From a virus (Duplodnaviria; Caudoviricetes), in IMG/VR virus record IMGVR_UViG_3300025646_005550, positions 1 through 46,604 of that record: DNA of 46,604 bases. The stretch is one strand, 5' to 3'. This document shows, piece after piece, positions 39,155 through 46,575 of the stretch; position 1 is the first letter of the stretch; every line of letters starts with the position of its first letter. Made by a program: the position numbers and the translations under genes. A model generated the notes under the pieces. It was not told the origin of the DNA and made no database searches. It saw only the letters and a program-made list of their open reading frames with translations.

Positions 39155-39160
39155 CAAAGT

Positions 39161-39303
39161 TCAGGCTCGCCACTTGTTTTGAGTACGAGAAAACAAGAAA
39201 CTCGGCGGGGTTAACCCCATCCGCACCAGGGCACGATTAACGTCTGTCCGAGACGGGCATATTGGGGATGACTCCACCACCTAGTTTTACTTAACTAGGA
39301 AAA
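39161..39303 (-). ncRNA. wcaG/manA-type cyanophage structured RNA
   Basis: Hairpins with repeated UGGYG motifs (GUGGUGG, UGGUGCGG, GUGGCGAG); upstream of a WcaG-family epimerase. Confidence 0.7.
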
Positions 39304-40264: not shown

Positions 40265-40293
40265 ATTATAGAAGACTTGGAACTCCTTGTCAA
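40265..40293 (-). promoter_or_regulatory. consensus sigma70 promoter for the tRNA pair
   Basis: TTGACA-17-TATAAT. Confidence 0.85.
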
Positions 40294-40460
40294 GAGGCTT
40301 CGTTATTTAACTCTGTGTATATGCGTATGAGTTCGTCATCTGCAGGAACCATCACCGCTGTACTCGATCCGTTAGTTATACCTATTCGTTCTCCACTTTC
40401 AACTCTACCAATCATTTCATCCCAACGTTGTTGAAACTCTTCCACTGTGTAAACTTGCAT
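40290..40460 (-). CDS. Phd/YefM-like small protein (56 aa)
   Basis: MQVYTVEEFQQRWDEMIGRVESGERIGITNGSSTAVMVPADDELIRIYTELNNEAS. Confidence 0.65.
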   Translation of the reverse strand: MQVYTVEEFQQRWDEMIGRVESGERIGITNGSSTAVMVPADDELIRIYTELNNEAS

Positions 40461-46116: not shown

Positions 46117-46117
46117 G

Positions 46118-46199
46118 TGTCGATGAAAGGACTTGAACCTTCATGGATTGCTCCACTGGAACCTAAACCCAGCGCGTATACCAATTCCGCCACATCGAC
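46118..46199 (-). tRNA. tRNA-Leu(TAG)
   Basis: Long variable arm; CTGGG-TT-TAG-GT-TCCAG. Confidence 0.95.
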
Positions 46200-46201
46200 A
46201 A

Positions 46202-46305
46202 ATGAGTAGTGAGTGTCCACCACCCGCAGAAGACACTTTCTGCAATTTTCACTGCATTAGAAGGCAGTGAAGATATGATAGAATCGGACATTTCCAACCC
46301 TATCA
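46202..46305 (-). ncRNA. unassigned structured RNA (three hairpins and a pseudoknot)
   Basis: 13-bp, 8-bp and 7-bp stems; loop AGTGTC complementary to downstream GACACT. Confidence 0.55.
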
Positions 46306-46306
46306 A

Positions 46307-46378
46307 CTCCCCCGGCTGGATTCGAACCAGCGACCGATCGGTTAACAGCCGATAGCTCTACCGCTGAGCTACAGAGGA
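46307..46378 (-). tRNA. tRNA-Asn(GTT)
   Basis: Cloverleaf; ATCGG-CT-GTT-AA-CCGAT. Confidence 0.95.
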
Positions 46379-46464
46379 ATGATGGAGTAAACGTAATACA
46401 TCTCATAAGGATATAACAGAGGTTTACCCTCTATCACTTTTATATATGGAGAATAAATCTCCAA

Positions 46465-46546: not shown

Positions 46547-46575
46547 ATCATACCAGTAAAAGATTTGATTGTCAA
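46547..46575 (-). promoter_or_regulatory. sigma70 promoter between tRNAs
   Basis: TTGACA-17-TATGAT. Confidence 0.8.

Follow-up and report, generated by a model that had tools for sequence, protein, structure and literature searches.

The window, meaning the whole 46,604-nt stretch analysed here, is a fragment of a T4-like cyanophage genome (about 23% complete). It contains PhotoRC-II and wcaG RNAs and 11 tRNAs (ARAGORN, Rfam), together with a transaldolase gene, a 6-phosphogluconate dehydrogenase gene and a ferritin-like gene. On the minus strand, a spacer of 107 nt (46200-46306) separates tRNA-Asn, upstream, from tRNA-Leu, downstream. A preliminary description had seen in this spacer one RNA molecule of about 105 nt with a single pseudoknotted fold. 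Instead, it is a cassette of three separable modules, named H1, H2 and H3/H4 here. In 5' to 3' order on the minus strand, the features are:

46547..46575, minus strand: sigma70-like promoter, 11 of 12 consensus positions and an extended TG (consensus match only)
46307..46378, minus strand: tRNA-Asn(GUU), no encoded CCA (tRNA calls)
46276..46305, minus strand: H1, a 13-bp hairpin with an AAUG tetraloop (covariation)
46248..46271, minus strand: H2, an 8-bp stem of free sequence with a conserved 8-nt loop, YYUCUAAY (covariation)
46226..46243, minus strand: H3, a 6-bp stem with the loop AGUGUC, first half of a nicked dumbbell (covariation)
46204..46225, minus strand: H4, an 8-bp stem with the loop GACACU, abutting H3 without a linker (fold and covariation)
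46117..46199, minus strand: tRNA-Leu(UAG) (tRNA call)
46116-46088, minus strand: second sigma70-like promoter, after tRNA-Leu (consensus match only)

The 3' end of H4 is 4 nt from the 5' end of tRNA-Leu. The promoter at 46547..46575 would drive tRNA-Arg, a further spacer, tRNA-Asn, the cassette and tRNA-Leu. That further spacer (46380-46463, minus strand), between tRNA-Arg and tRNA-Asn, is a second conserved, structured one (z = -3.3) that belongs to no Rfam family and whose motif matches 28 of 84 related loci. Pairing between it and the H2 loop was considered and rejected: the spacer forms its own hairpin, with a compensated variant in locus L138. Between tRNA-Pro and tRNA-Ile, a 56-aa ORF (40293-40460, minus strand) has a weak match to the Phd/YefM antitoxins (E 6e-4, below the cut-off).

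The 107-mer folds at -45.4 kcal/mol (z = -7.2), and none of 200 shuffled sequences does as well; for a 106-nt cut, the values are -45.2 on the minus strand versus -34.3 on the plus strand. The three hairpins recognised earlier are all present on the minus strand (H1, 46305-46276; H2, 46271-46248; H3, 46243-46226). The element is indeed not a cloverleaf and has no useful ORF, as had been stated: ARAGORN and Rfam find no tRNA in it, neither these programs nor the fold gives a cloverleaf or a T-arm with a T-loop consensus, and there is no ATG-started ORF in any frame. The contact that had been proposed between AGUGUC and a downstream GACACU stands insofar as the two are complementary, but GACACU is not single-stranded. 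It is the loop of H4, a hairpin missed in the preliminary description, and the proposed contact is thus loop-loop and not an H-type pseudoknot.

GUGGUGG, previously taken for a linker resembling an RNA at 39.2 kb, is the 5' strand of H4 plus the first base of its loop. The RNA at 39.2 kb is wcaG (Rfam, 39159-39257), which has a conserved repeated UGGYG motif; GUGGUGG occurs there at 39280 (39257-39285, minus strand), just upstream of the wcaG match; other phages also have this stretch ahead of their wcaG. In the cassette, GUGGUGG is found in just 17 of 62 distinct homologues, and it varies with compensation on the 3' strand. The wcaG likeness of the cassette is coincidental. Could the cassette nevertheless be a cis-regulatory or ligand-binding RNA of the wcaG or manA kind? 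Like PhotoRC-II, these RNAs are structured and conserved in T4-like cyanophages, where tRNAs are often their neighbours, and both motifs occur in the same tRNA regions as the cassette. They are considered candidate cis-regulatory RNAs or riboswitches (PMC2864571, PMC9602691). However, an Rfam scan (Rfam 15), which had been suggested at the outset, gives no match over 46200-46306, either at the gathering threshold or at E <= 10, and wcaG (RF01761) has no match on the element. In 20 homologous loci, no family falls on the element among the best 150 of 162 matches. Moreover, what follows the cassette is mostly a tRNA and not a coding gene, and GUGGUGG, as a variable stem strand, is not conserved, which makes this kind of function quite improbable.

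BLAST of a 109-mer matches only 5 of 50,697 phage records, representing two phages, S-SRM01 (a reservoir isolate) and S-PM2, and no plasmids. The 44-nt H3/H4 alone matches no phage record; since even S-SRM01 is missed, this search is insensitive. Pattern scans of IMG/VR yielded overlapping sets of 33, 93, at least 119, 103, 13 and 12 stretches, and a metagenome pattern scan yielded 54. All homologues were gathered by module motifs, and the counts given below describe cassettes with at least one module, not all cyanophages. Loci L446, L445, L530 and L553-L555 were rejected as half-matches or chance. When the search was widened to more divergent H3/H4 types, seven of 12 matches were real and none had a new loop pair. 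H1 and H3/H4 have no match in the tRNA regions of S-SCSM2R, S-CREM1, DSL-LC02, S-WAM2, Syn30 and Sf-FS3.

Homologue collection and covariation analysis, also suggested in the preliminary description, showed that all four stems covary. Two-sided changes, in counts that ignore kinship among rows, are found in 8 of 13 pairs of H1 (47 rows), 7 of 8 pairs of H2 (26 rows), 3 of 6 pairs of H3 and 7 of 7 counted pairs of H4 (55 rows). The H1 rows are 47 of 49 distinct sequences, one chance match and one near-duplicate having been dropped; those for H2 were picked by hand from 70 listed and earlier loci, and those for H3/H4, also by hand, mostly out of 68 distinct units. In H1, 96% of cells are paired; slid controls reach only 27-57%. 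Within this covarying framework, one U-G pair of H1 is invariant, one G-U pair is kept in 43 of 47 rows, and the apex is nearly fixed. The H2 stem changes around an invariant UCUAA and is wholly different in S-PM2, L138 and L200. The hairpin structure of the cassette is under selection, and the cassette is almost certainly a real, conserved, uncatalogued modular RNA. Stems that covary around fixed loops and wobbles are what one expects of surfaces that a partner recognises.

The H2 loop invites a specific interpretation of this kind. A tRNA-Arg(UCU) lies nearby in the window, and its anticodon loop is identical to the first 7 nt of the H2 loop; L138 and L200 have a variant of H2 immediately ahead of tRNA-Arg. 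H2 might therefore mimic the anticodon arm of tRNA-Arg(UCU) and act as a decoy, either for a nuclease that cuts anticodons or for a modifying enzyme. The H2 loop is 8 nt long, however, and at the position of the invariant U33 it has C in 23 of 26 rows, so that the exact match in the window is an exception. Such mimicry would also leave H1 and H3/H4 unexplained, and is very unlikely to be what the cassette is for. A possible resemblance of H1 to CRISPR repeat ends was set aside, the bases in question being paired in the covarying stem.

The preliminary description had also offered a ribozyme-like RNA. Theta ribozymes, which are HDV-like, start at the 3' end of phage tRNAs (PMC10879173), and the cassette likewise sits directly at a phage tRNA 3' end, where a self-cleaving RNA could trim tRNA-Asn. 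Yet the covariation fits simple, separate hairpins, no ribozyme family is matched in Rfam, and the parts are separable, some spacers (L028, L092) starting at H2 without H1. Theta and other HDV-like ribozymes are built as a nested double pseudoknot with a catalytic C; the cassette has no such pseudoknot. A ribozyme is thus extremely improbable.

The modularity is most evident from the layouts. Among 112 distinct spacers anchored by H1, there are 27 layouts but one fixed module order. Only 17 have the H1-H2-H3/H4 layout of the window; H2 is lacking in 43, H3/H4 in 21 (S-PM2 included), and 26 have H3/H4 but no H2. Seven further conserved modules, labelled G, JF, B, C, D, K and M, occur in these spacers, and the H1 core is also found within the variable stem of another module (L153). 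H2 and H3/H4 are present in one copy each in five of five near-complete genomes, with no tandem repeats of the unit.

The cassette is closely associated with tRNAs. Upstream of 123 H1 copies, there is a tRNA-Asn in 103 cases, a tRNA-Thr in two and no called tRNA in 18, so that 105 directly follow a called tRNA. By visual inspection of the 18, six come immediately after a promoter-like sequence and lack a tRNA, one is a chance match, and what precedes most of the remainder is either another module or a tRNA that is atypical or broken. Behind the 62 H3/H4 units there is a tRNA (Thr, Val, Leu or Met) or tRNA-like RNA within 15 nt in 47 cases, module M in seven and nothing recognisable in eight. 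This arrangement agrees with the earlier suggestion that processing of the flanking tRNAs would release the element. CCA-less tRNAs undergo endonucleolytic 3' processing, and that of tRNA-Asn would make the 5' end of the cassette. Cleavage by RNase P at the tRNA 5' end is standard processing (PMC10939160), and such a cut at tRNA-Leu would make its 3' end. The H1 copies behind promoters and the H3/H4 units with neither tRNA nor module behind them indicate that the cassette is also kept without tRNA neighbours.

Part of a relative's cassette is represented in an RNA library. A 1,048-nt contig from an aquatic metatranscriptome (contig depth 408) contains H2-H4 and the next tRNAs with 16 differences, and a second RNA run has a short piece of the element. 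In two other runs nothing covers the element, and H1 is not spanned by any listed RNA contig; all 24 RNA runs contain less than a quarter of the words, and missing cover shows nothing. These are assembled contigs, which give no ends, strand or level, and such libraries may contain DNA.

Might the modules simply serve the tRNA transcript in cis, determining tRNA yield as spacers, as barriers to nucleases or as signals for processing? The spacing would suit such a role: H1 starts 1-2 nt past the tRNA-Asn discriminator in most loci, and H4 ends 3-5 nt ahead of the next tRNA in 46 of 47. On the other hand, the conservation of loops and wobbles far exceeds the needs of a nuclease block, the downstream tRNA varies, and some cassettes have no tRNA on one side. 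Related phages, moreover, join the same tRNAs by gaps of only 1-3 nt (Asn-Leu in S-PM2, Arg-Asn in S-SCSM2R). Action in cis is unlikely to be the main function. S-SCSM2R also has the tRNA order of the window, Arg-Asn-gap-Leu-Gly-Val, but its 127-nt gap (L467, 2073-2199) contains an unrelated multi-hairpin RNA.

The H3/H4 module has an unusual geometry. The linker between the two hairpins is 0 nt in 51 of 62 units, 1 nt in ten and 2 nt in one, and the loops are spaced 14 nt apart in 60 units and 13 nt in two. The two stems are split as 6+8, 6+7, 5+8, 5+7 or 4+9 bp; that their sum is kept while the split shifts suggests one stacked rod with a nick, an argument that is carried by only three divergent types. 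In a metagenome scan with stems fixed and loops free (54 matches, 53 of them real, these being contigs and not independent events), the loops are fully complementary in 47 of 53, whereas the chance of full complementarity between two 6-mers is about 0.004. In the 55-row alignment, most rows of which came from scans or a filter favouring complementary loops, 97.9% of cells in the loop helix are paired and seven are unpaired. One position shows U-G, U-A and C-G, and in the divergent L183 type both loops have changed and all six pairs are kept. Changes in the 55 rows are nevertheless all one-sided against the commonest pair. Five of eight substitution types keep the pairing, for which P = 0.003 with all substitutions but 0.12 with transitions only. 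The data are consistent with loop-loop pairing, which is probable without being proven.

If the loops do pair, which loops would meet? Kissing between neighbouring hairpins of one molecule takes place in the SRP Alu domain and at enterovirus 3' ends, where there are spare linker or loop bases. In a crude model of H3/H4, the stem bases are 38-56 A apart for bends of 90-180 degrees, too far for a linker of 0-2 nt, and a six-pair kiss, if formed, should be between molecules. By this model, pairing of the loops would be easier between two molecules than inside a single one. Kissing loops connect helices end to end on a common axis (PMC13472322), and the nicked-dumbbell layout of H3/H4 is shared with engineered RNA nanorings (PMC11637918). 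Two complementary loops used head to tail are also found in the phi29 pRNA (PMC7357161). ROOL and GOLLD, which lie near phage tRNA islands, assemble by kissing loops (10.1101/2024.12.08.627333); they are large single domains, whereas the H3/H4 unit, a candidate oligomer, is about 40 nt.

These precedents raise the possibility that self-assembly is the main job of the RNA. The 13-14-bp rod of H3/H4, with complementary loops at its ends, would build head-to-tail rings or fibres, a miniature counterpart of the ROOL and GOLLD cages and the phi29 pRNA rings, and the other modules would be passengers or cargo sites. The short linker, the fixed loop spacing, the conserved sum of the stems and the complementary loops would all be explained. 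However, no loop pair shows a two-sided change against the commonest pair, the support for kept pairing fades when only transitions are counted, and the geometry is crude enough that fraying could allow a partial intramolecular kiss. H3/H4 is also missing from nearly a fifth of the H1-anchored cassettes, which makes it doubtful that assembly is what they are primarily for. If true, a natural self-assembling dumbbell of 40 nt would join the few RNAs that oligomerise for a function.

What, then, might read the conserved surfaces? A known precedent comes from type III toxin-antitoxin systems, in which short hairpin RNAs, such as abiF RNA (RF03085) and the pseudo-ToxI mimics, hold a toxin in trans. 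AbiF is neutralised in trans by abiF RNA (10.1101/2025.04.15.648962), and phages are known to use antitoxin mimics (PMC3475682). The likeness to the cassette lies in toxin-less abiF copies in the same phage tRNA arrays. Of 84 distinct phage loci that are 2 kb or longer, 18 have an abiF-like motif no more than 1.1 kb away, and Rfam confirms it in L001 and L008. In the phages, its flanks run into tRNA-like sequence and not into a toxin gene: the RNA lies between tRNAs with no Abi_2 behind it in L001 (2091-2127), L008 (2259-2295) and L468 (2922-2958), S-SRM01 has no annotated Abi_2 there, and in S-CREM1 abiF is annotated between tRNAs. Toxin-less phage abiF is thus a candidate orphan RNA antitoxin in cyanophages. 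The window itself, from a record about 23% complete, has no abiF RNA. Three lone protein antitoxins have been described in S-CREM1 (PMC9964418), and with these, the weak YefM-like ORF of the window and the toxin-less abiF in the arrays, these tRNA regions look like counter-defence islands. Decoys would agree with loops that are conserved on stems of free sequence.

Host counterparts were sought in 151 genomes of the family of a Cyanobium MAG and 151 of its phylum, both of them samples, with filters strict enough to miss weak matches. The H3/H4 model gave weak half-matches in two family genomes and none in the phylum. The H1 model matched 19 family genomes and one from the phylum, but 17 of the 19 come from a single conserved coding stretch read antisense, presumably a nucleotidyltransferase-like ORF; these lack the H1 loop and were rejected. 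The H2 model matched 3 of 151 genomes, as expected by chance. No module-like RNA was found ahead of a host toxin gene in the 151 family and 151 phylum genomes. A pattern search of 401 genomes gave one match, whose surroundings were scanned for tRNAs alone. The same search method does recover abiF RNA, in 3 of 151 phylum genomes, directly before an Abi_2 gene in two and before a uracil-DNA glycosylase in the third, yet it yields no host copy of H1, H2 or H3/H4. The modules further differ from abiF and ToxI in matching no family and in being single-copy instead of repeated. With no host copy found before a toxin in these samples and no tandem repeats, the cassette does not resemble an RNA antitoxin, although it may work like the antitoxin mimics.

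Tentatively, the best reading of the cassette is that it encodes processed decoy RNAs directed against host RNA-binding defences. The decoy suggested in the preliminary description is thereby retained; the tRNA mimic also suggested there is not, in the sense of a whole tRNA. The cassette would be transcribed in this phage with the tRNA cluster from the host-type promoter, and host processing of the tRNA 3' and 5' ends would excise a stable RNA of about 107 nt with a hairpin at each end. Each of its three independent small modules would present a conserved surface to a host RNA-binding protein: H1 its tetraloop and wobble pairs, H2 its 8-nt loop, and H3/H4 two 6-nt loops at a fixed distance. 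The likeliest targets would be toxins or nucleases of anti-phage defence, either normally held in check by an RNA or acting against tRNA, and the modules would act on them as decoys, as the toxin-less abiF antitoxin RNAs of the same arrays may do. Each phage would carry its own selection of modules. The nicked dumbbell of H3/H4 may in addition join copies head to tail through its complementary loops.

Several points weigh against the decoy reading. Unlike abiF, none of the three modules has a host counterpart that was found in the genomes searched, and the argument from abiF is one of guilt by association. The same arrays also contain wcaG and manA, the published candidates for cis-regulatory RNAs or riboswitches. 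Going further, the spacers could form a mix-and-match decoy array with one module per host defence, in which H3/H4 strings the RNAs into rings or fibres, a multivalent, RNA-only anti-defence scaffold built like the engineered nanorings. This extension is a rather unlikely one. If the decoy reading is right, each module is a bait for a possibly unknown RNA-binding defence protein. The module island is present in two cultured phages, S-SRM01 and S-PM2, and the idea of an RNA decoy island is thus directly testable.

Literature searches by topic found no description of the cassette or its modules, and a text search for six short module motifs returned only unrelated papers. The modules may already be listed as unnamed candidates among the 8,495 viral candidates of Fremin et al. 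2023 (PMC10690425). The closest analogues in position are rnaC (species 1, 139 nt) and rnaD (species 2, 119 nt) of T4, structured non-tRNA RNAs of similar size that, like the cassette, have tRNA genes on either side within a T4-like phage's tRNA cluster. Their function is given as unknown (PMC9697503). The H1 and H3/H4 models have no match in the rnaC/rnaD locus, and rnaC is one long domain ending in a T-arm-like hairpin, whereas the cassette is a string of separable modules. A 9-nt likeness of rnaC to an H1 variant was rejected, these bases being paired long-range in the predicted rnaC fold. Here the niche of species 1 and 2 is filled by some ten small motifs, interchangeable but always in the same order, with a recognisable toxin-less RNA antitoxin next to them.

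The related loci contain other RNAs of note. Modules D (L039, L141, L183), B, C and M (L036, L067, L056) are multi-way junctions of 60-110 nt, none of which belongs to an Rfam family; D includes a T-loop-like arm and, by BLAST, shows a weak likeness to phages My1 and Eos, and M is also present in S-CREM1, DSL-LC03 and S-RIM32. In L097 and L499, another pair of abutting hairpins precedes H3/H4, a 9-bp stem with an H3-like loop followed by a GAAA hairpin. The same tRNA arrays include phage-encoded tmRNA genes (L012, L025, L026, L011, L033). Often directly behind the cassette is a widespread tRNA-like RNA (L002, 2611-2683; also L008, L138 and L468) whose anticodon arm is irregular and usually has GACAA; ARAGORN miscalls it Leu(caa), His(atg) or '???'. 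Just behind rnaC in T4 (L364, about 1060-1090) is a small hairpin with a GACAA loop that has 11 nt in common with the tRNA-like RNA of S-PM2, a likeness that may be due to chance.
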